From: Opitutia bacterium UBA4654 | Lineage (GTDB): Bacteria > Bacteroidota > Bacteroidia > Bacteroidales > Bacteroidaceae | Direction: 5' to 3' | Length of the DNA stretch: 45,217 bases | NCBI GenBank assembly: GCA_963658045.1 | Contig: CAVKOT010000001.1 | Coordinates: 1 to 45,217 of the forward strand | Part shown: piece by piece, positions 1 through 42,198 of the stretch | Position numbering within the stretch: position 1 is the first letter of the stretch | Layout: every line of letters starts with the position of its first letter | Position numbers and translations under genes: made by a program | Notes under the pieces: model-generated | The model's database searches: none | Seen by the model: the letters and a program-made list of their open reading frames with translations, nothing else | What the model was told of the DNA's origin: nothing

Positions 1-52
1 TACTGCAAAGGTACGGAATTATTTTTAATTAGTGCGCTCTAAACGCCTATAC

Positions 53-1078
53 CTACTCACCAATTTCCGCGAAATCAGAAATCACGGCATTATCATATAC
101 TTCCGCATCTCCATATACCTGACAAGAATCACGCAATTCAGCACAACCTGTTATTTTGGAATTCTCAAACGTTCTTGAAAAACCGCCAATACTACACCCT
201 GCCTTACCATTACCAATGACTATCGAATTGCCATAAACCCTGGCATAATCGGTGACTCTAACATCCCCATCTATCAAGCACCCTCCATATATACGCGCGT
301 TTCCCGATATATTAGCACACCCTGTGACCACAGCATGCCCAAAGCAATGTACATTACCTCCAACCACAGCCTTGCCAGTCACTTTTGCCACACCACTTAT
401 TCGGGCATAACCACCAATTCGCACGCCACCATAAAGTTTTGCATTGCCACACACTTGCGCAACATCAGCAATCTCAGCGCATCCATAAACTTCTGCGCTA
501 TCACACACAATGGCATAACCACGAATAATTGCATCTCCGTGCACGCGACCCTCATCCACGACTCTGGCATATTCACATATCTGAGCATTTGCATAAACAT
601 CAGCGTTTCCATGCACACGCGCATAACCACTTACATGTGCCATTCCATGAATGGATGCCGTATCATACACGCATACATCCCCATATTCATCGCAAGAACA
701 ACGTCCATTCACCTTGGCCTCATCATATATTTCTGCCTCGCCAAATACTTGTGCACGGCCTGAAACCTGCGCTCGGTCGCGCACAACTGCATTTCCATAA
801 ACTTGCGCTTGGTCATATACTTTTGCCTCACCGCTTATACTCGCCTCATCTGACACACAAGCCCCACCGTACACGCGAGCATTTCCCGACACTTTAGCAT
901 TTCCATATACACAAGAGTCATCGAAGACCCAGGCCTTTTCGCTTAGGTTACTGGTGCTTTCGACAAAGCCCCCCACGCTACCCCTTTTTGCATAAGCGAA
1001 TGTGGCCATACACTTAATTCTATGAAGGACATGTCCCTCCACAATCTTTGTTTCGTCAGTTAGAATATAACTATCCAC
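53..1078 (-). CDS. Hexapeptide-repeat left-handed beta-helix protein (YdcK-like architecture), function unknown
   Basis: 341-aa ORF. After a ~55-aa head (YILTDETKIVEGHVLHRIK...GSVGGFVES) the protein is an essentially unbroken run of 6-residue repeats [GD]-x-A-x-[VI]-x (GNAKVS GNARVY GGACVS DEASIS GEAKVY DQAQVY GNAVVR ...). Head plus repeats resemble E. coli YdcK-type LbH proteins as I recall them. Confidence 0.7.
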   Translation of the reverse strand: MDSYILTDETKIVEGHVLHRIKCMATFAYAKRGSVGGFVESTSNLSEKAWVFDDSCVYGNAKVSGNARVYGGACVSDEASISGEAKVYDQAQVYGNAVVRDRAQVSGRAQVFGEAEIYDEAKVNGRCSCDEYGDVCVYDTASIHGMAHVSGYARVHGNADVYANAQICEYARVVDEGRVHGDAIIRGYAIVCDSAEVYGCAEIADVAQVCGNAKLYGGVRIGGYARISGVAKVTGKAVVGGNVHCFGHAVVTGCANISGNARIYGGCLIDGDVRVTDYARVYGNSIVIGNGKAGCSIGGFSRTFENSKITGCAELRDSCQVYGDAEVYDNAVISDFAEIGE

Positions 1079-1705
1079 TTTGTGTTCTCGTAATTTGTCA
1101 CTGCGGTAAACCGCATTTGTTATTATTGTTCAAAACACGCAAAAGGTCAATGTACATAACCTTTCTGTTATTTTAGGACGAATAGTGAACATATGCCCTA
1201 CGCCAACATCTCGGTCTGTATGACACCCAGTCCCCTTGGACAGTTCTCGGGCCATGCACGAAACGGGGTCACAGCGATTATACACATAGCCACTTACCCG
1301 GCTTGGACTTACCCCAGTTGCCTAACAGGCATGCCAATCATAGCAAGTACATCACGGTTGATGCCCCAGTGTGTGAACAGGCATATGGGAGAGGGCCTGC
1401 CCATAAGCGAATTCGCAAGACAATAAGCAGAACATACCATATGATAGTACCAATTCAGTAAAAAAGATACTTCATGATTTGAAATGACTTTCATATCGAC
1501 CACGCAATTAAATTATACCCTACAAATATACCCTTATCTTTTTGCATAACAAAACCATTTGGCATATTTGTTCCGAAAAGCATAAGACACAAATACCATA
1601 GATGTTCCAACTCAAAGGAAGAGCAAGGCAACAAGGGACATGAAGAGAAGCACCTTTCCAACCGCATTTGAAACAGCCGCCAGACTCCTGGCAAGGAACT
1701 CCCTC

Positions 1706-1799
1706 ACCGTCCAGCCCAAGGCTGGACGGTAGGAGAAGTTAACTTACCTTGCAAAGTCAGTATGCTTTCTTGCACCGTCCAGCCTTGGGCTGGACGGTG
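1706..1799. repeat. Pair of inverted copies of an 11-12 bp-stem hairpin (ACCGTCCAGCC-CAA-GGCTGGACGGT and its reverse complement)
   Basis: Hairpin 1 is at 1706-1730 and hairpin 2 at 1773-1799. Copy 2 is the exact reverse complement of copy 1 (loop CAA versus TTG). The flanks are also partly inverted (CTCCCTC / GAGGAG). Confidence 0.6.
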
Positions 1800-1886
1800 G
1801 AGGAGTGTTTCCGCCCCTGCCACCCTTGCTTCTTCATGCGCCTGGCAAGTACACTCCCTTCTCCACGGCAAGCATCATCCGTGTAT

Positions 1887-1952
1887 AAAATGGCCTTTAT
1901 TTGGCTACAGGATACCATTTCGGGGCACACGTAGCCAAATAAAGGCCATTTT
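1887..1952. repeat. Perfect 22-bp inverted repeat with a 22-nt spacer (A-tract / T-tract flanked, bidirectional-terminator-like)
   Basis: AAAATGGCCTTTATTTGGCTAC (1887-1908) and GTAGCCAAATAAAGGCCATTTT (1931-1952) are exact reverse complements. Confidence 0.7.
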
Positions 1953-2121
1953 GTATGCAGGCCGCTGGAAAAGCAATGAGTACTCCAGCATATTCCCATG
2001 TCAAGTCACACTGGAGGACTTGTTTACCTAAACAGGAAGTCCCAGCCACGCAGATGCACACAGCGAGGCCCGCATGCGCAATTTCATGGTGCATTATTGC
2101 ACACATCTCGCATAATCGTCC

Positions 2122-2129
2122 TACCTTTG
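2122..2129 (+). promoter_or_regulatory. Bacteroidota -7 promoter box (TACCTTTG)
   Basis: Matches TAnnTTTG, 38 nt upstream of the ATG at 2167. Confidence 0.5.
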
Positions 2130-2166
2130 CAGCCCGAAACGATATACACAAAGAAAGGATAGCATT

Positions 2167-2604
2167 ATGAGAAGAGTAATGAGCGTGCTTGTGTGCCTGC
2201 TGATGGCAGTAGCCAGCGTCATGGCGCAGAGTGACAAGATTGTGGGCAACTACCAGGTGGAACGCAATGGCGTGACGAGCAAGGTGAGGGTGTTCAAGCA
2301 TGAGGATGGCTACCGCGCACAGGTGACCTGGGTGAACAACCTGAAGAAGGAGGACGGCAGCCTGCGCACCGACGAGAAGAACCCCGACAAGAGCAAGCGA
2401 GGCGTGCGCGCCGACCAGATAGTGCTCATCGACAAGGTGACCTACGATGCCAAGGACAACGTGTGGACGGGCGGCAAAATCTATGACCCCACCAAGGGCA
2501 AGACCTATAAGGTGAAGTTGTGGTTTGACAGTGACAAGGTGCTCAAGATGCGCGGCTACATCGGTCCGCTCTATGACACCAGCACCTGGAAGAAGATTGA
2601 CTGA
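2167..2604 (+). CDS. DUF2147 domain-containing secreted protein
   Basis: 145 aa with a signal peptide (MRRVMSVLVCLLMAVASVMAQ). The motifs DEKNPDKSKR, GGKIYDPTKGKTYK and MRGYIG are characteristic of DUF2147 as I recall it. Confidence 0.8.
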   Translation: MRRVMSVLVCLLMAVASVMAQSDKIVGNYQVERNGVTSKVRVFKHEDGYRAQVTWVNNLKKEDGSLRTDEKNPDKSKRGVRADQIVLIDKVTYDAKDNVWTGGKIYDPTKGKTYKVKLWFDSDKVLKMRGYIGPLYDTSTWKKID

Positions 2605-2623
2605 ACGCATCCAGTTCTATATG

Positions 2624-2677
2624 GTGAAGGCCCAGACTGTTTGGCGCAGCCTGGGCCTTCACTGTATAGTTGTTTTT
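2624..2677 (+). terminator. Rho-independent terminator after the DUF2147 gene
   Basis: A perfect 12-bp stem, GTGAAGGCCCAG (2624-2635) / CTGGGCCTTCAC (2651-2662), is followed by TGTATAGTTGTTTTT. Confidence 0.6.
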
Positions 2678-2807
2678 GGCTTTCGTGGACAGCAATAAAT
2701 GAAAAGGAAAACCTACCAGGCATAAAGGACAGTCCCCTGTGATTCCCACAATACAATCCCTTATCTGCAATCCAAGACAGCACAAACAAAAAACGCTATA
2801 ATCCATA

Positions 2808-3548
2808 TTATAACAACTGATAGTTATATGCGTAAGTTATTGCCTCAACCATATTTCGAACCCTTAGTCGCTTGAATAACTTCTGCTTACATGTTTTGAT
2901 GGCATCCTTTGATTTACAGAGTTCAGAGGCGATATCCGGCACGGTAAGTCCTTGGCTTGCAAGAAAGATAATCTTACGTTCCATTTCCTTCAAAGCCACA
3001 CAACTACGCCTCGTCCATAAACGATTTCGGATATCATATTCATAGTATGCACTTTCTGAACTTTTCTTCATTCGAACATATCCAGAAGTATGTGCCGAAG
3101 ACTTGGACATCGCACACAGAACAAGACATGGCCTCCCAAACTCATCCACGTCAAGTGTTGTGAAAATATGATGAATCAGATGAGATTTCCCATTACTTGG
3201 ATTTTGAACACGAAAATCACAATGAAGAGAGAAGTCTGTCCTCTCTTCAAGCGGAAAATGCTGAAGCAAACCTAGACAAGCCTCACCTAACCCCCGAACC
3301 AGCCCCAAATCCTCCCATACAACACACCTTTCATAAAAGGAATACCCACTTTCTGCGACATCTTTCGCAGAACATCCGCACAAAAAATCAAAACTTCCAG
3401 ACACAAACGAAAACGTTTCTCTAACAAGATCTATTAGTATGATGCCTCGGCATGTACATCTTGAAAATGCCATTAGGGCCTTCACAAACGCATCCCGACG
3501 ACAGGACTCTAGCAAAGGAATGTCCTTCATCTGAAAATTATCGTACAT
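2808..3548 (-). CDS. LuxR/GerE-family HTH transcriptional regulator with an unassigned N-terminal sensor-like domain
   Basis: 246 aa. The C-terminal ~60 aa (ERKIIFLASQGLTVPDIASELCKSKDAIKTCKQKLFKRLRVRNMVEAITYA) form a LuxR-type HTH. It starts 11 nt downstream of the rSAM gene on the same strand. Confidence 0.8.
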   Translation of the reverse strand: MYDNFQMKDIPLLESCRRDAFVKALMAFSRCTCRGIILIDLVRETFSFVSGSFDFLCGCSAKDVAESGYSFYERCVVWEDLGLVRGLGEACLGLLQHFPLEERTDFSLHCDFRVQNPSNGKSHLIHHIFTTLDVDEFGRPCLVLCAMSKSSAHTSGYVRMKKSSESAYYEYDIRNRLWTRRSCVALKEMERKIIFLASQGLTVPDIASELCKSKDAIKTCKQKLFKRLRVRNMVEAITYAYNYQLL

Positions 3549-3558
3549 ATTTTTCTAC

Positions 3559-5115
3559 TCAATATTTCATTTCCGAACAGATTTCTGGCGCGAACTCACA
3601 TCTGGGGTCAGGATAGTCCCAGTTATCCCTGCCATACGCCTGTATCACTTTAACCACGCACTTCCGCTTATTCTCCTGACAAAAATCCAGCACTTTGCAT
3701 GATGAGCAACGACTTTCCTTGCGCGCGCCAAGCGTATGATTGTAAATAGACAGGGCTTTCGAGGAATTCCACACTTCACTTATGGATTGCTGGCGAAGGT
3801 CACCAATAAGGAATTGGGGATTCCAGTACATCAGTTCACAAATGCTCACCTTACCATCAGGAAGTACAAACATGCTGCTCAGTAATGCTCCGCACGCGCC
3901 ACCCTTAAAGCACTTCTCGTCACGCCCACCTTTATATACAGAATAATCCAACGCATTGTCACTAAGAAACAAAGTGAAGCAAGCCTTGGGCATTATCTGT
4001 TCCTGTACAAACGAGCGCAAGTTCTCTATAGAAGTTCTGTCCGCCTTTACTGAGACAAAAGAATCGGGAGTATAAAGAGAAAGTTCGGGCACACGAATTT
4101 CCCAGTAAGACAAATTCCTCAACGTGCCAATGTAAACAAACAAGTCGGACATCGTTTGTGTGTTGCAGTTATACTTTGTCAGGATGGTATCTATCTGTAT
4201 TTGGAAACCATATTTCTCCAGCAAGCCAATTGTCTTCTTCATCTGTTCCACATATCCCGACTTACTTCCGATAATCTGTGCGAGAACCTTGTCATCAAGA
4301 GAGTCAAGGGAAATCTGCACTACATTGTCATATCCCGTTTCCTTCAATGCCTTTATTTGTGACTCTGCCAAAGGCACCTTTGTGGATATATAACTGGGCA
4401 TCAGTTCGCAGTCCACGAGTTTCTTGATTATTTTTGCCCAGTCCCTGTGACAAAACACCTCTCCACCGATAATGTCAATGTGAGACATGTCCATTGCCCA
4501 TGCCTCATCAATGATACGGAATATCTCCTCGGTGGACAATGGCTTGTAACTTGTCTTCCGGTCTGCATAACAGTACCTGCAATTCGTCATGCACCGTGAA
4601 GTCAACATCAAAGTCATTGAGTGAGGACCTTTTAGTAAACGCCCTGCTTCCAAATTGAGTTCACGACAGGAGAAATTAACGCCTTCATTCCTGTTCCCCA
4701 AATACGCAATCTTTACCTTTTCATAAGGAAGCAGCACATTCTTCGGAAAGGAGATTCTTGTGTTTCCAAACTCTGTATATACAGCCTCTTCATTCTCTAT
4801 ATATTGTCCAATCATCTTATCAACCTGGGCAGGAGACAAATGAAATTTGGACTTCAAATCCTCATAATGCCAGGACATTGGATATGGTTTGACAAAAGAA
4901 AAGAGAATCTGTGCCTGTACAGGATGGACATAACTCACCCATCCCTTTGCACTATATGGTTGTACCCTATTAGTGGAATACAAAATCATCCTGTGGACAT
5001 CATTTTTGAAATAGTAGTCCGGGTTCAAAATATAAATCTGCGTATCAACCATTACCTTACTTACTAAATATTGAGAAAAGGGTGCCCCATAATAAATATG
5101 GGACACCCATACCAC
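3559..5115 (-). CDS. Radical SAM / SPASM-domain peptide maturase (alternative start at 5052, MVDTQIYILNPDYYF)
   Basis: The CX3CX2C motif occurs in LTSRCMTNCRYCYADR. The Cys-rich C-terminus (CFKGGAC ... CSSCKVLDFC...C ... CEFAPEIC) is SPASM-like. A ~150-aa N-terminal extension precedes the rSAM core and is a candidate leader-recognition domain. The gene lies immediately downstream of the small GG-leader ORF. Confidence 0.9.
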   Translation of the reverse strand: MVWVSHIYYGAPFSQYLVSKVMVDTQIYILNPDYYFKNDVHRMILYSTNRVQPYSAKGWVSYVHPVQAQILFSFVKPYPMSWHYEDLKSKFHLSPAQVDKMIGQYIENEEAVYTEFGNTRISFPKNVLLPYEKVKIAYLGNRNEGVNFSCRELNLEAGRLLKGPHSMTLMLTSRCMTNCRYCYADRKTSYKPLSTEEIFRIIDEAWAMDMSHIDIIGGEVFCHRDWAKIIKKLVDCELMPSYISTKVPLAESQIKALKETGYDNVVQISLDSLDDKVLAQIIGSKSGYVEQMKKTIGLLEKYGFQIQIDTILTKYNCNTQTMSDLFVYIGTLRNLSYWEIRVPELSLYTPDSFVSVKADRTSIENLRSFVQEQIMPKACFTLFLSDNALDYSVYKGGRDEKCFKGGACGALLSSMFVLPDGKVSICELMYWNPQFLIGDLRQQSISEVWNSSKALSIYNHTLGARKESRCSSCKVLDFCQENKRKCVVKVIQAYGRDNWDYPDPRCEFAPEICSEMKY

Positions 5116-5131
5116 TGTCCAGAACGTGGCA

Positions 5132-5347
5132 TCAAGGATTCTTCCCTGAATCAGGCTTAGGTTTCAGTGGCTTTGTACCAATAGCTTCCGTCCCATTGCA
5201 GATGACAAGGGCTGGTGTTCCATTGCATGAAATCGCAGGAGAACCATTACATACAATATCTCCTTCTGAACTTCCGCCTTTCACCTCCATCAATTCCATG
5301 ATATCAAGCGGTTCACCAAAGGCGAGAAGAGTCTTTTTTGTATCCAT
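5132..5347 (-). CDS. RiPP precursor peptide, double-glycine leader, core with three CNG[ST] repeats
   Basis: 71 aa. The leader is MDTKKTLLAFGEPLDIMELMEVKGG (L..EL..VKGG). The core is SSEGDIV-CNGSPAIS-CNGTPALVI-CNGTEAIG-TKPLKPKPDSGKNP. It is 16 nt upstream of the rSAM ORF, and a C39 ABC exporter is in the locus. Confidence 0.75.
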   Translation of the reverse strand: MDTKKTLLAFGEPLDIMELMEVKGGSSEGDIVCNGSPAISCNGTPALVICNGTEAIGTKPLKPKPDSGKNP

Positions 5348-5508
5348 AACGCCTATACTATATTAGTTTCTGCTTCCATGTCAGCGTGTCAGCGTGCGCT
5401 CCTTTTATACAGTATGGTCTGTGAAGCCTGTGATTCGCCTGTCACATTCTTCCCTCCCCTGCTGAGGCGAAAGCCCTACAAATTGTGGAGCACAACAGAG
5501 AAGCATCA

Positions 5509-5516
5509 CAAAATTA
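5509..5516 (-). promoter_or_regulatory. Candidate -7 box (TAATTTTG on the minus strand) for the precursor-rSAM-LuxR operon
   Basis: This is the only TAnnTTTG match on the minus strand in the 5348-5719 intergenic region. It implies a ~150-nt leader. Confidence 0.3.
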
Positions 5517-5652
5517 AAAAGTTTCCAAATTACCACGGCAAGAGAAGGCCGACTTTTCATCACACATTATGTTTTTTCACCCTTTTGGGTGTTATTACAA
5601 AATCTTCTCCACAAACAACACATTTCACAACCATAATACGCAAAAGATACCT

Positions 5653-5660
5653 TAACTTTG
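5653..5660 (+). promoter_or_regulatory. Bacteroidota -7 promoter box (TAACTTTG) for the OMP-ABC operon
   Basis: TAnnTTTG match 60 nt upstream of the ATG at 5720. Confidence 0.45.
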
Positions 5661-5719
5661 CTGCACATTTCTCCCAAAACAGGATTGGGTCACACTGCAA
5701 CAATAATAAATGAGCGAAA

Positions 5720-8041
5720 ATGGGAAAAAAAAGAAACCTTCTTTTAATTATATTCACTTGCGCAACGCTATTCGCCCAAGGCCAGAACCTCAAGGGCAGA
5801 GTAAGCGCAGAGGACGGAAAGCCCCTGGAGTATGTGAGTGTGGCCCTGCTGTCAGCCAAGGACTCCACCGTGATTACGGGCTGTGCCACACAGGCCGACG
5901 GAACGTGGACGATAATGGCAGACGGCAGCAAGGGCGTGCTGCTGAAGGTGAGCATGATGGGATATGAGACACGGTACTTTCAGGAGCCATTCCCCAAGAA
6001 CATCACTCTGAAGGAGAACGCCTCGACCATGAAGGAGGCACAGGTGACAGGGACACGCAAGTATGTCAAGGCCAACCCGCGGGGCTTTACCGTGCAGATG
6101 GAGGGAAACCCGCTGGGCCAACTGCCCTCGTCACTGGACGCGCTCAGGGAGATGCCGCTGATAGAGGGCACGGGAACAAACCTCACGGTACTGGGACGCG
6201 AGGGTACGCCTGTCATATACATTGAGCACCGGAAGGTGCAGGACATGACGGAGGTGCAGACTCTGAACCCATCCGAAATCAAGAGTGTGGAGATTATCAC
6301 CCACCCCGGCCCGAAATATGGCAAGGAGGTGACATCGGTCATCATCATCCATCTCAAGCGCAAAAGCCCCGGGCTGGCAGGATATGTGTCGGGCACAGGC
6401 TCGGTGGCAGAGAGGCTCTCGGGCTATGCCTACACCAATCTGTCATACACCTTCCTCAATGGGACAAGCCTCTATGCTGATGCCAATGGGAGCAGCAGCG
6501 GATACAAGATGAAGAATTCATTCTCAGACAAATATGCGCCAGAGAATGTCTCATCATCAACCAGCGGGACAAACGTGGGACGCAGCAAGAACTTCGATGT
6601 GACCGCAGGCGGAAGCCATGACTTCAAGAAAGGGCACTCCGTGGGAGCCAGGTACTCCTACACCCGCACGCCCTCGTCCATCGCGACGGTCAGTGCTCAC
6701 AACCTATCGACCAACAGCCTGGCCACCACGCTGATGGACACGCACACACGCACCAGCATGCAGAGCTGGAGACACTATGCCAATGCCTACTCTTACCTGA
6801 AACTGAGCAAACCGCTCTCGCTCACCATCAATGCCGACTACCTGCGGGGCAACTCGCCCACACACACGGCCATCACGGAACAGGCTGACGAGGATGAGCC
6901 CTGGCTGATGAGCACCAGCAACCTGAAGGACTACAAGATGGCTGCGGCAAAGGCCGACCTGGACGGCACCTGGAAAAGGTGGACACTACAGACGGGAGTG
7001 GAATACTCCTACACCCGGAACAACCTGGACTTCACAGGCACGGCAAGCAACGGCATCAAGCCCTTCCAGTCATCAGAGGACCAGGAACAGCAGAACCTGT
7101 ATGCCGTGTATGGCACTGCCACCTGCCAGATGAACGAGCACTGGGCATTCACGGGCGGGCTCAGGTGCGAGGTGACGGACTTTGACTACCACAGAAACCA
7201 CGAGAGGCAGGATGGGCTATCAAAGAACTACGCCGACTGGCTGCCCGAACTGGGGATAAACTATATGCACAAGGGCATGACGCTGGGACTCACCTACAAC
7301 AGCACGGCCTACCGCCCCACCTACAGCGACCTCAACAACAACTACACCTACATCACGCACACGTCCTGGGCCACAGGAAACCCGCTGCTGAAGAGCAACA
7401 TCATCAGAAACCTGGAGGCAAGCCTCGCGTGGAAGCAGACATACGTGTCACTCACCTACTGCCGACGCTTCAGGAACTTCCAGACCATATACCGATACCT
7501 GCCCGAAAGCCAGGTGAACCTGCGCCAGAACATCAACCTGCCTGGCTTCAATGACTTCCGGCTGGTAGTGTCACAGAGTTTCGATGTGAAGTGGTGGCAT
7601 CCATCCCTACAGGGCCTGCTGATGCTGGAGGACCTGGAGTATGGCGAGGAGGGGTGGAAACGCTCTTATAAGAAACCCTTCTTCCAGTTGACCACCAAGA
7701 ACCGCATAGACCTCCCCTGGAAGATATATGCCTGGGTGGGAGCCACCTGGAGGGGACGTGGCAATGTGACCACCGTCTATTATGACAGGCACAACTTCTC
7801 GGCCTACCTGCAGATGAGCAAGAGCATCAAGGACTGGAGCCTGTCAATGACCGTCAACGACTTCACCCACACCAACCGCCTCAGATACCGGATCGACTCC
7901 AATGGTGTAGCCTACGCCAGCAGCCAGAAGGGCGGCATCTGCATGCTCCAACTCTCGGCCACCTATATGTTCAACTATAAGAACAAGAGGGAGTACAAGG
8001 GCAAGGGCGCAGCCAGCAATGAGTTGAACCGTCTGAACTAA
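5720..8041 (+). CDS. Outer-membrane beta-barrel protein, TonB-dependent-receptor-like (CarboxypepD_reg N-domain plus plug-like region plus barrel)
   Basis: 773 aa with a signal peptide. The N-terminus (LKGRVSAEDGKPLEYVSVALLSAKDSTVITGCATQADGTW) is typical of the carboxypeptidase-regulatory-like domain. A long region of beta-strand-like alternating Y/T/S-rich sequence follows. The gene ends 12 nt before the ABC exporter. Confidence 0.8.
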   Translation: MGKKRNLLLIIFTCATLFAQGQNLKGRVSAEDGKPLEYVSVALLSAKDSTVITGCATQADGTWTIMADGSKGVLLKVSMMGYETRYFQEPFPKNITLKENASTMKEAQVTGTRKYVKANPRGFTVQMEGNPLGQLPSSLDALREMPLIEGTGTNLTVLGREGTPVIYIEHRKVQDMTEVQTLNPSEIKSVEIITHPGPKYGKEVTSVIIIHLKRKSPGLAGYVSGTGSVAERLSGYAYTNLSYTFLNGTSLYADANGSSSGYKMKNSFSDKYAPENVSSSTSGTNVGRSKNFDVTAGGSHDFKKGHSVGARYSYTRTPSSIATVSAHNLSTNSLATTLMDTHTRTSMQSWRHYANAYSYLKLSKPLSLTINADYLRGNSPTHTAITEQADEDEPWLMSTSNLKDYKMAAAKADLDGTWKRWTLQTGVEYSYTRNNLDFTGTASNGIKPFQSSEDQEQQNLYAVYGTATCQMNEHWAFTGGLRCEVTDFDYHRNHERQDGLSKNYADWLPELGINYMHKGMTLGLTYNSTAYRPTYSDLNNNYTYITHTSWATGNPLLKSNIIRNLEASLAWKQTYVSLTYCRRFRNFQTIYRYLPESQVNLRQNINLPGFNDFRLVVSQSFDVKWWHPSLQGLLMLEDLEYGEEGWKRSYKKPFFQLTTKNRIDLPWKIYAWVGATWRGRGNVTTVYYDRHNFSAYLQMSKSIKDWSLSMTVNDFTHTNRLRYRIDSNGVAYASSQKGGICMLQLSATYMFNYKNKREYKGKGAASNELNRLN

Positions 8042-8053
8042 GCGACGGGACTT

Positions 8054-10273
8054 ATGCCACTCCTAATGCCAGCATTCCCCTTCTGCCCACAGCATGACAG
8101 CATGCAGTGTGGGGCTGCCTGCCTGCAGATGCTGTGCCTGTACTATGGCAGGCGATATACGCTGGAGTACCTGAGTAACGCCTGCGCAGCAACCAGCGAG
8201 GGGGTCTCCCTCTATGGGTTGATGTCAGTGGCAGGACAGTTAGGCTTTGACACCCGGTGTGTGAAAGCGACGCTGGAAGAGGTGTCCCAGGCCACACTAC
8301 CCTGTATCCTGCACTGGAACCAAAATCACTTTGTGGTCCTGTACAGAATCAAGAAAGGCCACAAGTTCTACATCGCCGACCCTGGCAAGGGACTTATGAC
8401 CTACGACACCGAGGACTTTCTGAGCCATTGGGCCAGCATCCCGAACGTTGACAGACAGGAGTCCAGAGGCATCGCCATGCTGTTGCTACCCACCCGGGAT
8501 TTCTACAGCCAGGCAGAAGGACAAGGCAAGGCAGGGGGTGAGACACACTCCTTCCGCTTCCTGTTTGGATACATACACCGGTACAGAGGCTATTTCGGAC
8601 ATATTGCCCTGGGGCTGACCGTTGGCATAGGCATACAGTTGGCCTTGCCACTTCTCACCCAGTCCATTGTGGACGTGGGCATCAAGAACCAGGACATAGG
8701 TTTTGTCTGGCTAATCCTGCTGGGGCAGTTTGTACTCACCCTCAGTGGCACCATCTTCGACTTCATACGTCGCTGGCTCCTGCTGCACATCAGCCTGCGC
8801 ATCGACCTCTCGCTGGTGAGTGACTTCTTCATCAAGTTGCTCAGTCTGCCCATGCCTTTCTTCGACACCAAGCAGATGGGTGATCTGATACAGCGTATGG
8901 GTGACCATGACCGCGTGAATAACTTCCTCACCCAGCAAACCCTAAGCATCACCTTCTCAGCACTCACATTCTCGGTATTCTCGTCACTGCTGCTCTACTA
9001 TAGCGGCATGGTGTTCCTCATATTCCTGCTGGGCAGCATCCTCTATGCCTGCTGGATGACCCTCTTCATGCACCGGCGCAAAGTGCTGGACTATGAGTTT
9101 TTTGAGAAGCAGGCCGTATGCAGCAACAAGACCTATGAACTCATCACCTCCATGCAGGAGATAAAGCTCCAGGGCGGAGAAAACCAGCATCGCTGGGACT
9201 GGGAAGACACCCGGGTCGAACTCTCGACAGTGCAGACCAAGTCGCTGAAACTGCAACAGACACAGGAGGCGGGCAACGTCTTCATCAATGAGGTGAAGAA
9301 CATGCTACTCACAGTGGTGGCCGCCACAGCGGTAATCAACGGCCACATGACCCTGGGCATGATGCTGGCAGTGCAATATATCATAGGACAACTGAATGCT
9401 CCCGTGGAACAACTGATGTCCTTCCTGTATTCTGTCCAGGATGTCAGCATCAGCCTGGAACGCATCAACGAGATTCACCGCATGGACGGCGAGGACAGTG
9501 AACAGGGGTTGCAAACGTCTGTGGCCGACGAAAGCCAGGGCATCACGCTGCAAAATGTGTCATTCAGGTATGACAAGTTTGCACAGCACGACATCATTGA
9601 CCAGGTGAGCATCCACATCCCCAAAGGCAAGGTGACTGCCATTGTGGGGGCGTCGGGAAGCGGGAAAAGCACGCTGGTAAAGCTCATGCTGGGCTACTAC
9701 CCCACCAGGGAGGGCACGATAAGCATAGGCGGAACAGACATCAGACAGCTCAACAAGGAGTGGTGGCGGCACCAGTGCGGGGTAGTCATGCAGGATGGTG
9801 CCATCTTCTCTGACACCATAGCCAGGAATATTGCCGTGGGAGAGGGAGAGATTGACAGGCAGCGACTGATGGAGGTCACCGAGATGGCCTGCATCAAAGA
9901 GCATATTGTGTCACTGCCACTGAAGTTTGGCACAAAGATAGGGCGTGACGGAATGGGGCTCAGCCAGGGACAGCGGCAGCGCATTCTCATCGCCCGCGCT
10001 GCCTATCATAACCCCCAATACATCTTCCTTGACGAGGCCACTAACTCGCTCGATGCCAACAACGAGCGCAGGATAGTAGAGAACCTGGACACCTTCTATA
10101 AGGGGAAGACGGTGGTCATCGTGGCTCACCGCCTAAGCACCGTAAGGAACGCCGACCAAATAATCGTGCTTGAGCAAGGCAGAGTGGCCGAGGCCGGCAC
10201 GCACAAGGAGCTCACCCAAAAGCGTGGAGCATACTATCAACTGGTAAAGAACCAACTGGAACTGGGCAACTGA
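8054..10273 (+). CDS. Peptidase C39 domain-containing ABC transporter (double-glycine leader peptide processing/export)
   Basis: 739 aa. The N-terminus FPFCPQHDSMQCGAACLQMLCLYYGRRYTLEYL carries the C39 catalytic Cys context. Six TM segments follow. Walker A is GASGSGKST, the ABC signature is LSQGQRQR and Walker B is IFLDEATN. Confidence 0.92.
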   Translation: MPLLMPAFPFCPQHDSMQCGAACLQMLCLYYGRRYTLEYLSNACAATSEGVSLYGLMSVAGQLGFDTRCVKATLEEVSQATLPCILHWNQNHFVVLYRIKKGHKFYIADPGKGLMTYDTEDFLSHWASIPNVDRQESRGIAMLLLPTRDFYSQAEGQGKAGGETHSFRFLFGYIHRYRGYFGHIALGLTVGIGIQLALPLLTQSIVDVGIKNQDIGFVWLILLGQFVLTLSGTIFDFIRRWLLLHISLRIDLSLVSDFFIKLLSLPMPFFDTKQMGDLIQRMGDHDRVNNFLTQQTLSITFSALTFSVFSSLLLYYSGMVFLIFLLGSILYACWMTLFMHRRKVLDYEFFEKQAVCSNKTYELITSMQEIKLQGGENQHRWDWEDTRVELSTVQTKSLKLQQTQEAGNVFINEVKNMLLTVVAATAVINGHMTLGMMLAVQYIIGQLNAPVEQLMSFLYSVQDVSISLERINEIHRMDGEDSEQGLQTSVADESQGITLQNVSFRYDKFAQHDIIDQVSIHIPKGKVTAIVGASGSGKSTLVKLMLGYYPTREGTISIGGTDIRQLNKEWWRHQCGVVMQDGAIFSDTIARNIAVGEGEIDRQRLMEVTEMACIKEHIVSLPLKFGTKIGRDGMGLSQGQRQRILIARAAYHNPQYIFLDEATNSLDANNERRIVENLDTFYKGKTVVIVAHRLSTVRNADQIIVLEQGRVAEAGTHKELTQKRGAYYQLVKNQLELGN

Positions 10274-10274
10274 C

Positions 10275-10451
10275 ATGAACAGAGAAACACATCCAAGAGA
10301 GGGGCAGGATAACCTGGACTTGCGCAGCGAGAAGGCCCGCCGCTTTATCAGACAGAAGCCCTCCCGCCTGGTGCTCATGGGCACCTGGGCCATGACATTG
10401 GTCATCCTGGCACTGTCGCTGGCCTTCTATGCCATGCGCTTCAGGCTGTGA
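10275..10451 (+). pseudogene. 58-codon ORF resembling only the N-terminal TM anchor of a HlyD-family periplasmic adaptor (probable truncated remnant)
   Basis: The ATG is 1 nt after the ABC stop. The translation is MNRETHPREGQDNLDLRSEKARRFIRQKPSRLVLMGTWAMTLVILALSLAFYAMRFRL. The motif L-x-LRSE...P...G followed by a single TM helix matches the start of Bacteroidota HlyD adaptors as I recall them. The ORF then stops, 42 nt before the convergent xth gene. Confidence 0.45.
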
Positions 10452-11252: not shown

Positions 11253-11404
11253 TTGAGGTTTTGAGGTTATAAGGTTTTGAGGTTATAAGGTTGTATGCTT
11301 CCTGGTCTTCGGACTTTCGCCCATACAGCTGTACGAGTCACAGCCATAGGGCTCCTTTCCCCAAAAGACCTAAAAACCTCACAACCCTAAAACCTCATAA
11401 CCTT
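11253..11404 (-). repeat. Leader cassette of xth: (AGGTTnnn)x4 - 80-nt spacer - (AACCTnnn)x5 - ATG (read on the minus strand)
   Basis: On the plus strand there are 8-bp-period units TTGAGGTT TTGAGGTT ATAAGGTT TTGAGGTT ATAAGGTT (11253-11292) and AAAACCTC ACAACCCT AAAACCTC ATAACCTT (11373-11404). On the minus strand the AACCT array ends 6 nt before the xth ATG. Confidence 0.7.
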
Positions 11405-14910: not shown

Positions 14911-15015
14911 GGTTTAATACAGGTTATAAGGTTTTTAGGTTATTAGGCCGTGAGGTTTCGCAGGAGACACACGTCCAGAACCTTAAAACCTTAAAACCTC
15001 AGAACCTCAAAACCT
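14910..15015 (+). repeat. Intercistronic cassette (AGGTTnnn)x6 - 21-nt spacer - (AACCTnnn)x5 - ATG upstream of the acyl-CoA dehydrogenase gene
   Basis: AGGTT (one AGGCC variant) occurs at 14910, 14921, 14929, 14937, 14945 and 14953. AACCT occurs at 14979, 14987, 14995, 15003 and 15011, an exact 8-bp period. The array ends 7 nt (15016-15022) before the ATG at 15023. The last two units (AACCTCAAAACCTCAA) are identical to those upstream of xth. Confidence 0.7.
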
Positions 15016-15022
15016 CAAAGAA

Positions 15023-16993: not shown

Positions 16994-19900
16994 ATGGAAA
17001 GAAGAATCATGCTGGCAGCGATGATGCTGCTCATGCCACTGCTGGCTCTCGCACAGCGCGTCACGCTCACCGGCACCGTCACCGACGCAGCCGACGGGAG
17101 CCCGTTGCCAGGCACCTCGGTGGTGCTGCTGAGCCAGAAGGACAGCGCACAGGTGACAGGCATCTCCACCGACGAGAACGGCAAGTTCCGCATGCCCGCC
17201 GTGAAGGCAGGCAAGTACATCATGCGTCTCACCTTTGTGGGATACGTCACCCAGTGGAAGGACATCACGCTGGAGAAGGGCAAGAAGGAGGTCAGCCTGG
17301 GCACCCTCGCCATGAAGGAGAACGCCAGCATGATGAAGGAGGCCGAGGTGGTGTCGTCAGTGGCACAGGTGGAGATGAAGGCCGACACCTTCATCTACAA
17401 CGCCGACACCTACAAGTTGCCCGAGGGCTCGGCGCTGGAGGAACTGGTGAAGAAGCTCCCCGGTGCGGAGGTGAGTGATGACGGAACCATCAAGATCAAC
17501 GGAAAGACTGTGTCCAAGGTGATGGTCGAGGGCAAGGAGTTCTTTGACAACGACACCAAGATGGCCATGAAGAACCTGCCCACCAAGATGGTGAAGAAGA
17601 TAAAGGCATACGACAAGAAGAGTGACTACACGCGCATCACGGGCATCGACGACGGCGAGGAGGAGACGGTGCTTGACCTCACAGTCAAGAAGGAGATGAA
17701 GGAGGGCTGGATAGCCAACATCGACCTGGGCTATGGCACCGAGGACCGATACACGGGCAAGGCCAACGTGAACCGCTTCCTGGACCACTCGCAGTTCTCG
17801 CTCATCCTGAGCCGGAACAATGTCAATGACAACGGATTTGGCTGGGGAGGACCGCGCTGGGGAGGTGGCGGAGGCATCACCACCAGCACCATGGCGGGAG
17901 CAAACTTCTGGTGGGACAACGGCAAGCCGGACTACTCGGCCGGACTCTTCAAGGCGGGAGGCAACATACGCTACAGCCACTCGAAGAGCAACTCGCTGTC
18001 GAAGTCCAACAGCCAGACTTTCCTTGACGAGGTGCACTCCACCTTCAGCAACCAGATGAACCAGAGCCTGAGCACAAGCAGCAACGTGAACGTGGGGCTG
18101 CGCCTGGAGTGGATGCCCGACAGCATGACCAACCTCTTCTTCCGTCCCAGTTTCTCGCACTCGCAGTCGAGCCGCAGGGGCTACAGCCAGAGTGTGACCT
18201 TCAACGATGACCCCTATGCCACCTACAACGGAGTCACCATGACCGACCCGCTCACGCAGTACAACCTGGAGGAGAACCGCATGATACGCGACAGCATAGC
18301 CGTCAACGACAATGTGCGCAGCAGCATGTCAGACAGCCACAGCAACAGCGTCGAGGGCCGTCTGCAGGTCAACCGCAGGCTGCACAAAGCAGGACGCAAC
18401 GTGACACTCAACCTGGGCGGATCCTACCAGGACAGCCAGAGCGAGTCGTTCAGCCGCTCGGTCATCAACTATTACCAGCGCGGGGACAATGACTTCACCA
18501 ACCAGTACATCACCTCGCCCAGCGTGTCCTATAACTTCCGCACGCGTCTGAGCTACACCGAGCCCATCATAGGCGCGCTCAACCTGCAGATGAGCTACCA
18601 GTTCCAGTACCGCTACAGCGACAACGACCGCAGCATGTACAGCATCGACAGCCTGCTCACCAAGTTCGGTGGCTACTACACCCAGGAGCAACTCTACCTG
18701 GGCTACATCCCCGGGCTGGACTCTCTCAACTACTGCTACAATGCCCAGAACAGCCAGTATGCCACCTACCGGGAGTACAACCACGAGGCCAACCTCATGT
18801 TCCGATACAATAAGGGAGAGAGCCGTCTCAACTTCGGCGTGAGCCTGCAGCCGCAGACCACCCACATGGACTACGCGCGCAACCTGCTGGACACCACCGT
18901 CGTGCGCCACACGTTCAACTGGGCACCCAGGGTGGATTACCGCTGGAAGATAAGCAACACCAGCGAACTGCGGGCGCGGTTCAACGGCTGGATGAACCAG
19001 CCCAGCATGACCAATCTGCTGGAGGTGACCGACAGCAGCGACCCGCTGAACATCAGCACGGGCAACAGTGGACTGCGCAGCAGCTGGCAAAACAACCTGG
19101 ACCTCTTCTACAATGCCTATGTGTCAGAGAAGCAACGCGGGTGGATGGTCAACGCGCGCTATAACCAGACGCGCAACAGCATCAGCAGTGCCACCATCTA
19201 CAACACAGAGTCGGGTGCCCGATACACGCGTCCCATGAACATCAACGGCAACTGGAACGCGGGAGGAGCCATCATGTTCAACACGGCCATGGGCAGGAAG
19301 AAGTACTTCAACGTGCACACCTTCACCAACCTCAACTACAGCAACAATGTGGGTTACCTGAGCAGTAACAGCGACGGAGCAGACTGGGGCAACATCTATC
19401 TGCCTAACGGAAGCGTGAACATGGACTACATCTTCAGCAACACACCCCTGCAGAAGGCCACCACCAAGACGACCAACGTGAACGAGAACGTGCGTCTGAA
19501 CTTCCGCAATGACCTGCTGGAGGTGGGTGTGAATGGTGGTGTGAACTACCAGCACGCACGCTCGGCCCTACAGAGGAACGCCAACATGGACAACTGGAGT
19601 TTCAACTATGGAGGCAACCTCACCATCAACGCGCCCTGGGGCACCAGTCTCAGCACCGACATCGGCGAGCAGTGCCGCCGTGGCTATGAGGACGCGAGCA
19701 TGAACACAAACGAGTTGATATGGAACGCGCAGGTAAGCCAGTCGTTCCTCAAGAACAAGGCGGCCACCATCAGTGTGCAGTGGTACGACATCCTGAGGGA
19801 GCGCAGCAGCATCAGCCGCGCCATCAGCGCGACCATGCGAAGCGACTCCTGGACCAACGCCATACACTCCTATGTGATGGTACACCTCATCTACAAACTC

Positions 19901-20002
19901 AACCTCATGGGCAGCCGGGGCGCACGCATGCAAGGCTTCGGCGGACACGGAGGCCCTGGTGGCGGCCCTGGTGGCCCAGGGAGAGGGCCAGGACACTTCT
20001 GA
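16994..20002 (+). CDS. Outer-membrane beta-barrel protein, TonB-dependent-receptor-like (CarboxypepD_reg N-domain), with a Gly/Pro-rich C-terminal tail
   Basis: 1002 aa with a signal peptide. The N-terminus is VTLTGTVTDAADGSPLPGTSVVLLSQKDSAQVTGISTDENGKF. A plug-like region (ALEELVKKLPGAEVSDDGTIKINGK) and a long barrel follow. The protein ends ...GFGGHGGPGGGPGGPGRGPGHF. Confidence 0.85.
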   Translation: MERRIMLAAMMLLMPLLALAQRVTLTGTVTDAADGSPLPGTSVVLLSQKDSAQVTGISTDENGKFRMPAVKAGKYIMRLTFVGYVTQWKDITLEKGKKEVSLGTLAMKENASMMKEAEVVSSVAQVEMKADTFIYNADTYKLPEGSALEELVKKLPGAEVSDDGTIKINGKTVSKVMVEGKEFFDNDTKMAMKNLPTKMVKKIKAYDKKSDYTRITGIDDGEEETVLDLTVKKEMKEGWIANIDLGYGTEDRYTGKANVNRFLDHSQFSLILSRNNVNDNGFGWGGPRWGGGGGITTSTMAGANFWWDNGKPDYSAGLFKAGGNIRYSHSKSNSLSKSNSQTFLDEVHSTFSNQMNQSLSTSSNVNVGLRLEWMPDSMTNLFFRPSFSHSQSSRRGYSQSVTFNDDPYATYNGVTMTDPLTQYNLEENRMIRDSIAVNDNVRSSMSDSHSNSVEGRLQVNRRLHKAGRNVTLNLGGSYQDSQSESFSRSVINYYQRGDNDFTNQYITSPSVSYNFRTRLSYTEPIIGALNLQMSYQFQYRYSDNDRSMYSIDSLLTKFGGYYTQEQLYLGYIPGLDSLNYCYNAQNSQYATYREYNHEANLMFRYNKGESRLNFGVSLQPQTTHMDYARNLLDTTVVRHTFNWAPRVDYRWKISNTSELRARFNGWMNQPSMTNLLEVTDSSDPLNISTGNSGLRSSWQNNLDLFYNAYVSEKQRGWMVNARYNQTRNSISSATIYNTESGARYTRPMNINGNWNAGGAIMFNTAMGRKKYFNVHTFTNLNYSNNVGYLSSNSDGADWGNIYLPNGSVNMDYIFSNTPLQKATTKTTNVNENVRLNFRNDLLEVGVNGGVNYQHARSALQRNANMDNWSFNYGGNLTINAPWGTSLSTDIGEQCRRGYEDASMNTNELIWNAQVSQSFLKNKAATISVQWYDILRERSSISRAISATMRSDSWTNAIHSYVMVHLIYKLNLMGSRGARMQGFGGHGGPGGGPGGPGRGPGHF

Positions 20003-20015
20003 GCACCAAGCCATG

Positions 20016-20101
20016 CATGCCCCTGCGATGCTACGCGCATGCCCCTGCGATGGCACATGCATGCCCCTGCGACGAACAACGCAGGGGCATGCATTTTTTG
20101 T
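20016..20101 (+). terminator. Composite terminator: 3 direct GCATGCCCCTGCG arms at a 22-bp period plus an inverted arm plus a T-run
   Basis: The direct arms start at 20016, 20038 and 20060. The inverted arm CGCAGGGGCATGC is at 20081-20093, followed by ATTTTTTG. Arm 3 and the inverted arm form a 13-bp stem with an 8-nt loop. Confidence 0.75.
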
Positions 20102-30017: not shown

Positions 30018-30038
30018 GGGCAAGGTGTGCCCGAAAAC

Positions 30039-30124
30039 GCATGCCCCTGCATAGGGCTGCACATGCCCCTGCAAAGACAAACGCATGCCCCTGCATTGAT
30101 GAATGCAGGGGCATGCGTTTTTTC
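30039..30124 (+). terminator. Composite terminator: 3 direct (G/A)CATGCCCCTGCA arms at a 22-bp period plus an inverted arm plus a T-run
   Basis: The arms start at 30039, 30061 and 30083. The inverted arm TGCAGGGGCATGCG is at 30104-30117, followed by TTTTTTC. Confidence 0.75.
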
Positions 30125-40499: not shown

Positions 40500-41665
40500 G
40501 ATACTATCTGATAGCAGGCGAGGCCAGTGGCGACCTGCACGCGAGCCACCTGATGGCCGAGCTCAGGGCACAGGACCCCCAGGCCGAGTTCCGTGGCATA
40601 GGGGGAGACCTGATGCAGGACGAGGGTGCCACACTGGTGCGCCACTACCGCGACCTGGCCTACATGGGCATCCTGCCGGTGCTCATGCACCTGGGCACCA
40701 TACTGGGGGGCATGAGGGAGTGCCGTGCCGACATCCTGCAATGGCATCCCGATGCGGTCATCCTGGTCGATTACCCAGGCTTCAACCTGCGCATGGCGAA
40801 ATTCGTCCATACACACACGCGCATACCTGTCATCTATTACATCTCGCCCAAGATATGGGCGTGGAAGGAGCACCGCATACATGACATACGCCGCTATGTG
40901 GATATGATGCTGAGCATCCTGCCCTTCGAGGTGGATTTCTATGAGCGCAGGCACCACTACCCCATCCACTATGTGGGCAATCCCACGGTGGACGAGGTGG
41001 ATGCCTACCTGCACGAGCACCCCGCTGACGAGGCCGCCTTCCGCCAGGACAACGGACTGGACGGCCGCCCCGTGATAGCCCTGCTGGCAGGCAGCCGCAG
41101 GCAGGAGATCAGCGGCAACCTGCCGCGCATGGTGAGTGCGGCACTGGGCATGGGCACGGACTACCAGATGGCCGTGGCTGCCGCGCCAGGCATCCCCGAT
41201 GACTTCTACCATGAGGTGCTGGCCAGCCAGTATCACCGACTGACCGCCGAGCGGAGGCTGACGGTGCTGCGTGACCAGACTTACCGACTGCTGCAGCACA
41301 GCACAGCGGCACTGGTGACCAGCGGGACGGCCACGCTGGAGACGGCCCTGCTGCGCGTGCCACAGGTGGTGTGCTACCACATGTGGGCGGGACGGCTGGC
41401 CTCGGTGGCCCGCAGGCTGGTGCTGAAGATTCCCTTCATCTCGCTGGTCAACCTGGTGGCGGGCGAGGAGGTGGTGCCCGAACTGGTGGCCGAACAGATG
41501 AACGTGCCCAACGTGGAGCGGCACCTGCGGGCCCTGCTGCCTGGCGGCCCCGCACGCGAGGCGCAGCTGGAGGGCTACCAGCGCATGGCGGAGAGGCTGG
41601 GCCAGCCCGGCGCACCCGCCCATGCCGCCGCGCTCATCATCCAGAGGCTGCGGGGAGAGGGATAA
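40496..41665 (+). CDS. lpxB: Lipid-A-disaccharide synthase
   Basis: The start is chosen at MRYYLIAGEASGDLHASHLM, with its ATG overlapping the surE stop (ATGA). It is 389 aa with a typical LpxB N-terminus and the SGTATLE motif. Confidence 0.93.
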   Translation: MRYYLIAGEASGDLHASHLMAELRAQDPQAEFRGIGGDLMQDEGATLVRHYRDLAYMGILPVLMHLGTILGGMRECRADILQWHPDAVILVDYPGFNLRMAKFVHTHTRIPVIYYISPKIWAWKEHRIHDIRRYVDMMLSILPFEVDFYERRHHYPIHYVGNPTVDEVDAYLHEHPADEAAFRQDNGLDGRPVIALLAGSRRQEISGNLPRMVSAALGMGTDYQMAVAAAPGIPDDFYHEVLASQYHRLTAERRLTVLRDQTYRLLQHSTAALVTSGTATLETALLRVPQVVCYHMWAGRLASVARRLVLKIPFISLVNLVAGEEVVPELVAEQMNVPNVERHLRALLPGGPAREAQLEGYQRMAERLGQPGAPAHAAALIIQRLRGEG

Positions 41666-42055: not shown

Positions 42056-42113
42056 CTCACAGACTTCTTACAACGGCTCTTGCCTCACAAGGAGGCAAGG
42101 CGCACTCACAAAC

Positions 42114-42198
42114 GCATGCCCCTGCATCGCCCTTTGCATGCCCCTGCGCAGACCATCGCATGCCGCTGCATGCGCCTATGCAGCGGCATGCGTTTTTT
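42114..42198 (+). terminator. Composite terminator: 3 direct GCATGCC(C/G)CTGC arms at a 22-bp period plus an inverted arm plus a T-run
   Basis: The arms start at 42114, 42136 and 42158. The inverted arm TGCAGCGGCATGCG is at 42179-42192, followed by TTTTTTC. Arm 3 (GCATGCCGCTGCA) and the inverted arm carry a compensatory C>G / G>C change relative to the other two loci. Confidence 0.75.

Follow-up and report, generated by a model that had tools for sequence, protein, structure and literature searches.

A predicted radical SAM-modified peptide locus of gut Bacteroidales with a C39 exporter, a reduced adaptor and a TonB-type outer-membrane barrel

The window analysed here is the whole 45,217-nucleotide stretch of contig CAVKOT010000001.1 (assembly GCA_963658045.1, Opitutia bacterium UBA4654). 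At positions 2808-10451 it contains a locus of six open reading frames (ORFs): on the minus strand a precursor peptide, a radical S-adenosylmethionine (rSAM) enzyme with a SPASM domain and a LuxR-type regulator, and, transcribed divergently on the plus strand, an outer-membrane barrel, a peptidase-containing ATP-binding cassette transporter (PCAT) and a protein of only 58 residues. All six are present in the ORF list and its translations at the coordinates and on the strands given by a preceding sequence-only reading of this DNA, and Pfam and NCBIfam scans agree with its domain assignments, the 58-residue protein being without a family match. That reading had described a locus that makes, processes, exports and regulates a ribosomal peptide, with which both the gene content and the conserved cassette agree. 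We regard the locus as probably, though by no means certainly, an intact member of a family of rSAM-modified peptides (peptides made on the ribosome and modified after translation, RiPPs) of gut Bacteroidales, for which a route of maturation and export can be proposed. The gene content, the intact motifs, the conserved cassette and the conserved type of precursor are direct observations. The alanyl-tRNA synthetase, with 90-91% identity to proteins of named metagenome-assembled genomes, places the host close to Paraprevotella as an uncultured bacterium of the Bacteroidaceae, and outside the locus the contig is ordinary chromosome.

The precursor gene (5132-5347, minus strand) encodes 71 residues. 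Its translation comprises a leader (residues 1-25; 5273-5347, minus strand) ending in Gly-Gly (GG; MELMEVKGG) and a core (residues 26-71; 5135-5272, minus strand) that reads SSEGDIV-CNGSPAIS-CNGTPALVI-CNGTEAIGT-KPLKPKPDSGKNP. For comparison, a survey set of 100 further loci with a relative of the rSAM enzyme or of the barrel protein was used; counts on the cassette refer to the 70 loci whose rSAM enzyme scores at least 600 bits against the family hidden Markov model, which fall into 30 lineages when grouped at 90% identity. In all of these (30/30) the rSAM gene has a GG-leader precursor upstream. The small ORF named as the precursor in the sequence-only reading is thus conserved beside the rSAM homologues, and its presence in every one of these non-redundant lineages puts the locus far beyond chance.

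Across 41 distinct cores, whose precursors share the leader consensus L-D-V-x-E-L-M-E-V-K-G-G, cysteine is the sole invariant residue. Each core holds two to six cysteines, and of 70 intervals between them 61 measure 7-9 residues. Ala or Ser occupies position +5 in 81 of the 111 units, G/V/F occur at +2 and V/I at -2, and Pro-rich C-terminal tails recur. The family-wide unit is C-x4-[A/S]-[G/V/A], with CNG[ST]xA[IL] as the local version in the window. Hence, the three CNG[ST] units pointed out earlier are indeed present in this precursor, but they are not the motif of the family, and the Asn that follows Cys, which is not conserved family-wide, is no general acceptor. Trp occurs in 0 of the 41 cores and aromatic residues are absent from eight, the window's among them, which argues against aromatic carbon-carbon cross-links. 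A comparison with thioether peptides led to the same outcome as the sequence-only reading, namely that the core motif matches none of the known patterns of such peptides. In NCBIfam, where TIGR04149 and TIGR04139 were sought, the window's precursor matched 0 families at E ≤ 10; of three homologous precursors that were scanned, one matched 0 families as well and two gave sub-threshold matches only, the best to TIGR03949. Some cassettes carry a second, longer precursor of 97-99 residues with five or six Cys units and Lys/Arg-rich linkers (L013, 873-1166; L103, 7722-8021).

The rSAM/SPASM maturase (3559-5052, minus strand) matches, as expected from the earlier reading, both Radical_SAM (PF04055, E = 1.9e-20) and SPASM (PF13186, E = 1.9e-11) in a Pfam scan. 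The gene had been placed at 3559-5115; this ORF and its CMTNCRYC motif are present, but the start is most likely the ATG at 5052, since two gene callers and all homologues give the resulting form of 497 residues, so that the GTG at 5115, which would give 518 residues, is probably not the start. With the ATG, 79 nt separate the precursor and rSAM genes, compared with 43-208 nt in the homologues. In 30 homologues the cysteines of the CX3CX2C motif (C154, C158 and C161) are invariant, as are seven cysteines of the SPASM region (387, 405, 449, 452, 458, 465 and 485), which follow the pattern C-x12-G-x4-C, C-x2-C-x5-C-x6-C and a final C and would, judging from this pattern, serve two auxiliary clusters. 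An AlphaFold2 (AF2) model with a mean predicted local distance difference test score (pLDDT) of 89 shows beta strands and then three helices in its N-terminal domain, as is the case in peptide-recognition elements. The best Foldseek matches are SuiB, PqqE, SkfB and CteB, with anaerobic sulfatase maturases (anSME) lower and identities of 13-18% in the structural alignments; the full-length match to SuiB takes in its RiPP recognition element (RRE). By this ranking the enzyme does not group with the anaerobic sulfatase maturases, in line with its initial assignment to RiPP chemistry. Sequence and profile searches against the PDB returned distant SPASM/rSAM relatives only (E ~1e-10 to 1e-12).

No NCBIfam model reached its cut-off with the rSAM enzyme, the best being PqqE with 77 bits against a cut-off of 381. 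TIGR04148 is not among its best 25 matches, all of at most 77 bits, the presence of this model in release 20 not being independently confirmed; eight more distant Bacteroidales relatives of the enzyme likewise matched no curated NCBIfam model, so that they provide no positive control for TIGR04148. As in the sequence-only reading, the product class is still not assignable after comparison of domains, structures and families. Nevertheless, a Cys thioether would be the most likely product chemistry from the sequences, because Cys is the sole invariant core residue and because the enzyme has the seven-Cys SPASM count of CteB, QhpD and Tte1186, which are given as thioether-forming enzymes with this count in a survey of RiPP clusters (PMC10352776).

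The PCAT (8054-10273, plus strand) comprises Peptidase_C39 (PF03412, E = 4.7e-34), ABC_membrane (PF00664) and ABC_tran (PF00005) domains. Its motifs are intact, both those of the C39 peptidase (QHDSMQCGAAC, NHFVVL, IADPG) and the Walker A, ABC signature and Walker B motifs. As the score against TIGR01193 is 379 bits, under the cut-off of 524, membership holds at the level of domains only.

The 58-residue protein (10275-10451, plus strand) was recognised by alignment with small ORFs at the same position of other cassettes. They share the motif (I/L)ELRSEKxRxxxGxxPxxLxRxG, followed by one transmembrane (TM) helix, and resemble the N-terminal cytoplasmic motif and TM helix of Bacteroidota HlyD-type membrane fusion proteins (MFPs). 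In the alignment the window's protein has none of the periplasmic MFP domains (lipoyl, alpha-hairpin and beta-barrel), and it has no Pfam or NCBIfam match; owing to the loss of these periplasmic parts, it cannot reach or dock to a TolC-type channel. Its homologues fall into two size classes of 58-79 and 157-193 residues, of which the larger retains one beta-barrel domain, a 157-residue form matching PF26002 (Beta-barrel_AprE). The protein had been taken for an HlyD-like stub, that is, a remnant. This no longer fits, since a homologue is present in 13/18 lineages and the ratio of nonsynonymous to synonymous substitution rates (dN/dS) is 0.26 against L103, a closely related locus, at 81% identity; we therefore refer to it as a mini-adaptor. 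Full-length MFPs (407-422 residues) occur in distant loci only. The idea that a full-length MFP and the barrel exclude each other was dropped as an argument, the picture not being clean: L003 has both, and L096 and L088 carry an unassigned protein of 380 residues after the PCAT.

The outer-membrane protein (5720-8041, plus strand) is, according to Pfam, profile searches, the AF2 model and Foldseek, TonB-dependent-transporter-like and of the Oar type. Pfam finds CarboxypepD_reg, OMP_b-brl_3 (PF14905, E = 1.1e-46) and, more weakly, TonB_dep_Rec_b-barrel (E = 2.3e-12), and no match to Plug (PF07715) at E ≤ 0.01. In the model (pLDDT 83) the signal peptide is followed by an extension folded as a beta-sandwich (residues 22-97), then by a linker of low confidence, the plug (116-212) and a large barrel (218-751). 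Together with the structural matches it corresponds to a predicted plug-closed 22-strand barrel of a TonB-dependent transporter (TBDT): Foldseek returned FepA, PfeA, PirA and Cir at E ~1e-19 (FepA and PfeA 5e-20), and the family profile matches a SusC homologue over extension and plug, PfeA over plug and barrel, and Cir over the plug. Between extension and plug the cassette barrels have a conserved TonB-box-like motif, L/M-x-E-[VA]-[VQ]-V; the corresponding MKEAQVTG in the window is a weaker match and a candidate TonB box. A second, unrelated CarboxypepD_reg and OMP_b-brl_3 protein of 1002 residues is encoded at 16994-20002 (plus strand), after etf and acyl-CoA dehydrogenase genes, and therefore PF14905 barrels are not confined to peptide loci in this genome.

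The regulator (2808-3548, minus strand) is a LuxR-type solo protein with a GerE helix-turn-helix (HTH) domain at residues 190-240 (PF00196, 26.4 bits against a cut-off of 23.5). It has neither a receiver domain nor a TM segment, its N-terminal ~170 residues have no assigned family, and its PDB matches (VpsT, VraR and NarL) are restricted to the HTH. Homologous regulators stand beside the cassette in eight loci. Between the two operons lies a divergent promoter region with 41% GC (5348-5719), in which two candidate boxes of the Bacteroidota -7 type, TAnnTTTG, were located by consensus match, one facing the precursor (5509-5516, minus strand) and one facing the barrel gene (5653-5660, plus strand). 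An inverted-repeat search found a 23-nt inverted repeat at 2617-2669, between the convergent DUF2147 and LuxR genes, which is probably a two-way terminator.

The canonical cassette consists of precursor, rSAM, barrel, PCAT and mini-ORF genes in one direction. A PF14905 barrel gene directly follows the rSAM gene on the same strand in 26/28 lineages, the PCAT gene comes next in 20/22, and after it the homologue of the 58-residue ORF. The gap between rSAM and barrel genes is 2-61 nt in most loci, and in a few the ORFs overlap. Hence, the pairing of the exporter with a TonB-type barrel, which had struck the sequence-only reading as unusual, is the rule in this family, and it has been reported for other Bacteroidota peptide loci: PF14905 proteins are associated with Bacteroidetes graspetide loci and have a predicted role in export (PMC8939145), and Bacteroidales clusters with a PCAT and an outer-membrane protein (OMP) but without an MFP have been described as well (PMC10352776). 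In one locus (L044) a tandem pair of barrel genes separates the rSAM gene from the PCAT gene. The homologues of the rSAM enzyme form more than 324 clusters at 40-66% identity; where a cluster names its organism, it is Muribaculaceae or Muribaculum. The titles of the loci that the genome scan returned give Prevotella, Bacteroides, Muribaculaceae, Lentimicrobiaceae, Bacteroidaceae and Bacteroidales, and gut metagenomes of humans and animals carry the cassette widely. In L017 and L018 (1-7070) a canonical cassette adjoins CTnDOT-type conjugation genes (TraJ, TraM, TraO, TraQ, primase and lysozyme), which points to spread on conjugative transposons; the locus of another copy also has a DDE transposase gene.

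Compared with the canonical cassette, the regulatory and biosynthetic half of the window's locus is inverted. GC content, GC content at third codon positions (GC3) and blastn against L103 delimit a module at 2666-5781 that comprises the LuxR, rSAM and precursor genes and the promoter region. It has a GC content of 0.34-0.46 and a GC3 of 0.35-0.49, while its surroundings have 0.56-0.60 and 0.73-0.83, respectively. L103 and L104 share the neighbourhood of the window (DUF2147, LuxR, precursor, rSAM, barrel, PCAT, 58-residue ORF, xth and GT92) in canonical order. By blastn the flanks of L103 are 85-86% identical to the window and the rSAM gene 69%, in reversed orientation. At the protein level, identity to L103 decreases from 90-95% for the flanking DUF2147, xth and GT92 (synonymous divergence, dS, about 0.27) over 78-86% for PCAT, barrel and mini-ORF (dS 0.45-0.68; dN/dS 0.12-0.26) to 70% for the rSAM enzyme, where dS is saturated, and 33% for the LuxR protein at the same position, where dS is not computable. 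This divergence and the contrast in GC and GC3 point to recombination with an allele of lower GC as the event that replaced and inverted the half with the regulatory and biosynthetic genes. Inverted repeats at the module borders were limited to short, imperfect pairs of chance quality. Window positions 26-7300 (7275 nt) are 100% identical to an independent Logan assembly (L012) covering both module junctions, so that the unusual gene order is real and does not stem from mis-assembly.

The close relatives have lost parts of the cassette. In L103 (8478-12306) and L104 both the rSAM and the barrel gene are split, the former by a nonsense codon (TGC to TGA). L101 (8667-12586) and L102 have the orientation of the window and clean deletions of most of the rSAM gene with the precursor and of the PCAT with the mini-ORF; their barrel gene is intact, with 86% identity to that of the window and a dN/dS of 0.13. 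A 111-codon ORF at 5378-5713 was a candidate immunity gene but was discarded, as it is of low complexity, has no homologue and overlaps the promoter region; alignable DNA in L101-L104 extends over its ends only (5366/5418 onwards, or 5378-5399).

These features can be arranged into a mechanism, for which we infer what type of reaction takes place and where the rings lie, in which direction the barrel transports, what the regulator targets and which biological role the peptide has, as bacteriocin or signal. The leader of the 71-residue precursor (LDIMELMEVKGG) would be bound by the N-terminal recognition domain of the rSAM/SPASM enzyme, which would then act on each of the three C-x4-A-[I/L] units. 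Most likely, the Cys sulfur would be joined to a carbon a few residues downstream, giving a thioether ring with a mass change of -2 Da per Cys and -6 Da in total. The C39 domain would cleave after Gly25 and the PCAT, assisted by the 58-residue membrane anchor, would move the 46-residue core over the inner membrane. The TonB-type barrel would carry the peptide over the outer membrane, with the outward direction favoured in a two-step route like that of Oar/PopC of Myxococcus, and the LuxR-type solo regulator may control both divergent promoters. Outward transport is favoured by the operon position of the barrel gene, the reduced adaptor and the lack of a TolC gene. The direction of transport is the weakest link of the mechanism, and we put the chance of export through the barrel at about even or slightly below.

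Several points weigh against this reading. In the literature searched, including for the leader strings MEVKGG and LMDVKGG, no characterised product of any family member was found, and no immunity gene is visible at the locus. The solved SPASM enzymes all stand at about the same distance from the rSAM enzyme, and the reaction type is therefore not fixed by homology. To our knowledge, every characterised TBDT except Oar is an importer. Retention of the barrel in L101 and L102 after loss of the rSAM enzyme, precursor, PCAT and mini-adaptor fits a role of the barrel that is independent of export, and pseudogenised copies in close relatives mean that expression in the window's lineage is not assured.

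The alternative that survives best, which we still consider somewhat unlikely, is that the barrel is an importer or receptor: the peptide would leave the cell otherwise, and the barrel would retake the peptide or a peptide-metal complex in signalling or as a public good. As a variant, the barrel may be a resistant receptor allele kept beside toxin genes, as in the BSAP loci of Bacteroidales. The TBDT fold with its plug and conserved TonB-box-like motif agrees with such a role, as does the intact barrel gene under purifying selection in L101 and L102, which resembles non-producers that retain a receptor. In addition, the barrel is much the fastest to diverge, as surface receptors do: from cassette to cassette its identity is 22-61%, against 60-68% for the PCAT and 46-65% for the rSAM enzyme. 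However, the cassette encodes no inner-membrane importer, periplasmic binding protein or membrane sensor, and the barrel gene stands between those of the rSAM enzyme and the PCAT, with very short gaps, in 26/28 lineages. With a reduced adaptor and no TolC-type gene an exit over the outer membrane would still be required, and the cores are hypervariable in sequence and Cys number, unlike metallophores.

A second alternative concerns the chemistry. Instead of cross-linking its substrate by thioethers, the rSAM enzyme could epimerise the conserved Ala, Val or Ile positions, convert Cys to another group (thiooxazole or formylglycine, for instance), or methylate carbon. Its equal distance from PqqE, SuiB, SkfB, CteB, MoaA and anSME leaves room for such reactions, as do a match to SbtM, a thio(seleno)oxazole maturase, which is weak though it spans the full length (E = 3.1e-12), and the conservation of small or aliphatic residues at positions +4 to +7. 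On the other hand, the regular spacing of Cys as the sole invariant core residue and the seven-Cys SPASM pattern, reported for thioether formers (PMC10352776), speak for thioether formation, and the NCBIfam scan gave no known epimerase or methylase signature. We consider a reaction other than thioether cross-linking unlikely.

It appears improbable that the locus is a relic in decay whose expression has ceased in this lineage. The damaged rSAM and barrel genes of L103 and L104, the deletions in L101 and L102 and the rearranged gene order of the window relative to all other loci would fit decay. In the window, however, none of the six ORFs is shortened, no invariant residue or catalytic motif is missing, promoter-like boxes face both operons, and the dN/dS of 0.12-0.26 for PCAT, barrel and mini-adaptor argues against it.

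Finally, membership in the GG-Bacteroidales rSAM system (TIGR04148 maturase, TIGR04149 precursor and TIGR04150 pseudo-rSAM protein), suggested in the sequence-only reading, is very improbable: phylum, GG leader and SPASM rSAM enzyme are shared, but no curated rSAM model is matched by the enzyme or its distant relatives, the precursor is unmatched at E ≤ 10, and there is no pseudo-rSAM partner among the genes of 2808-10451, each of which is accounted for.

Other parts of the window contain repeats and a further region of deviating composition. An intergenic 89-nt unit is repeated 4.4 times at 41660-42049 (95% matches), each copy with a -7-type TAATTTTG box, an internal 14-nt duplication of AATTTTGAATTAAG and a GC-rich, hairpin-like GGCGAGCTGTCACCATGGTGGCGGCTCGC. 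Five tandem copies of TTGAGGTT at 11253-11292 and five copies of its reverse complement AACCTCAA at 14979-15019, 3.7 kb apart, bracket GT92-etfB-etfA and stand directly upstream of the GT92 and acyl-CoA dehydrogenase genes; they may be arrays of regulator binding sites. Three arrays with a 22-nt period (20015-20072, 30035-30095 and 42113-42176) share the core GCATGCCCCTGC and look like a dispersed element of the repetitive extragenic palindromic (REP) kind. One of them lies shortly after the ORF of the 1002-residue barrel, which ends at 20002, and another after the 89-nt array, which ends at 42049. Within an ORF of 904 residues without a Pfam match (42463-45177, minus strand), a 315-nt unit is repeated twice at 42904-43524 (94% matches). 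Positions 1-2000 are low in GC (0.40-0.52) and encode a YdcK-like beta-solenoid protein of 341 residues (53-1078, minus strand) with a GC3 of 0.35; as this is well under the host level, the region was probably acquired too.

Bacteroidales make up a major part of the gut microbiota, yet no rSAM-modified peptide from them with a known structure or role was found in the literature searched. The fast variation of the cassette is as expected of molecules of competition or signalling. Genome mining had already revealed SPASM rSAM peptides combined with export by a PCAT in Bacteroidales, whereas we did not find described the family of enzyme and precursor with C-x4-[A/S] repeat cores, the conserved vestigial adaptor or the module swap seen here. 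The PCAT, the vestigial anchor and the PF14905 barrel may form a new, TonB-energised two-step route of peptide export that replaces the MFP-TolC duct, and the rSAM enzyme may install a new ring topology, from Cys to a small residue ~5 positions downstream, on the tandem units C-x4-[A/S], in which case the peptides would make up a thioether subclass of their own. Taken together, we regard these two readings as rather doubtful. The five genes offer a test system for the passage of a leader-cleaved peptide over the Bacteroidota outer membrane with neither a full MFP nor TolC encoded, a problem to which published work has drawn attention, and if the TonB-type barrel does export, the single precedent of Oar/PopC would be extended to a whole class of peptide loci.

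Among known systems, the GG-Bacteroidales system resembles the locus in its Bacteroidales host, GG leader and SPASM maturase and differs in its family models and its pseudo-rSAM partner. In the export of colicin V and class II microcins (CvaB as PCAT, CvaA as MFP, and TolC), a C39 PCAT removes a GG leader in a Gram-negative cell, and the same is expected here; however, the MFP is present only as a membrane anchor, and the operon encodes a TonB-type barrel, not TolC. The systems of CteB (SCIFF/ranthipeptides), SkfB and AlbA (sactipeptides) and PapB (freyrasin) have the same order of RRE, rSAM and SPASM or twitch domains, Cys-containing cores, the seven-Cys SPASM pattern and repeated short Cys units, the latter comparable to the CX3D repeats of freyrasin. 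In contrast to these, Cys here has small or aliphatic conserved partners (A/S, G/V/A) and not Asp, Asn or Thr, the host is Gram-negative with an outer-membrane component in the locus, and the core motif is unlike the known patterns.

The rSAM-only RiPP clusters of Bacteroidales (Fernandez-Cantos et al. 2023, PMC10352776) share the GG leader, SPASM rSAM enzyme, C39 exporter and OMP gene, lack a full-length MFP and are described from sequence only, all of which holds for the present locus. That work does not describe the present rSAM family, cores with C-x4-[A/S] repeats or a conserved mini-adaptor, nor does its accessible text say that its OMPs belong to PF14905 or to another family. Oar of Myxococcus xanthus, which secretes PopC, is the sole experimental precedent for export through such a TBDT (PMC6434023). 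Like the barrel of the window, it combines a CarboxypepD_reg N-terminal extension with a plug; it has a TonB box, for which the window's barrel offers a candidate, and it transports outward from the periplasm in a two-step route, as proposed here. Unlike here, the cargo of Oar is a 50-kDa protease, there is no linked ABC exporter, and its Plug domain is recognisable by Pfam; the cargo proposed for the present barrel is a peptide of ~4.5 kDa.

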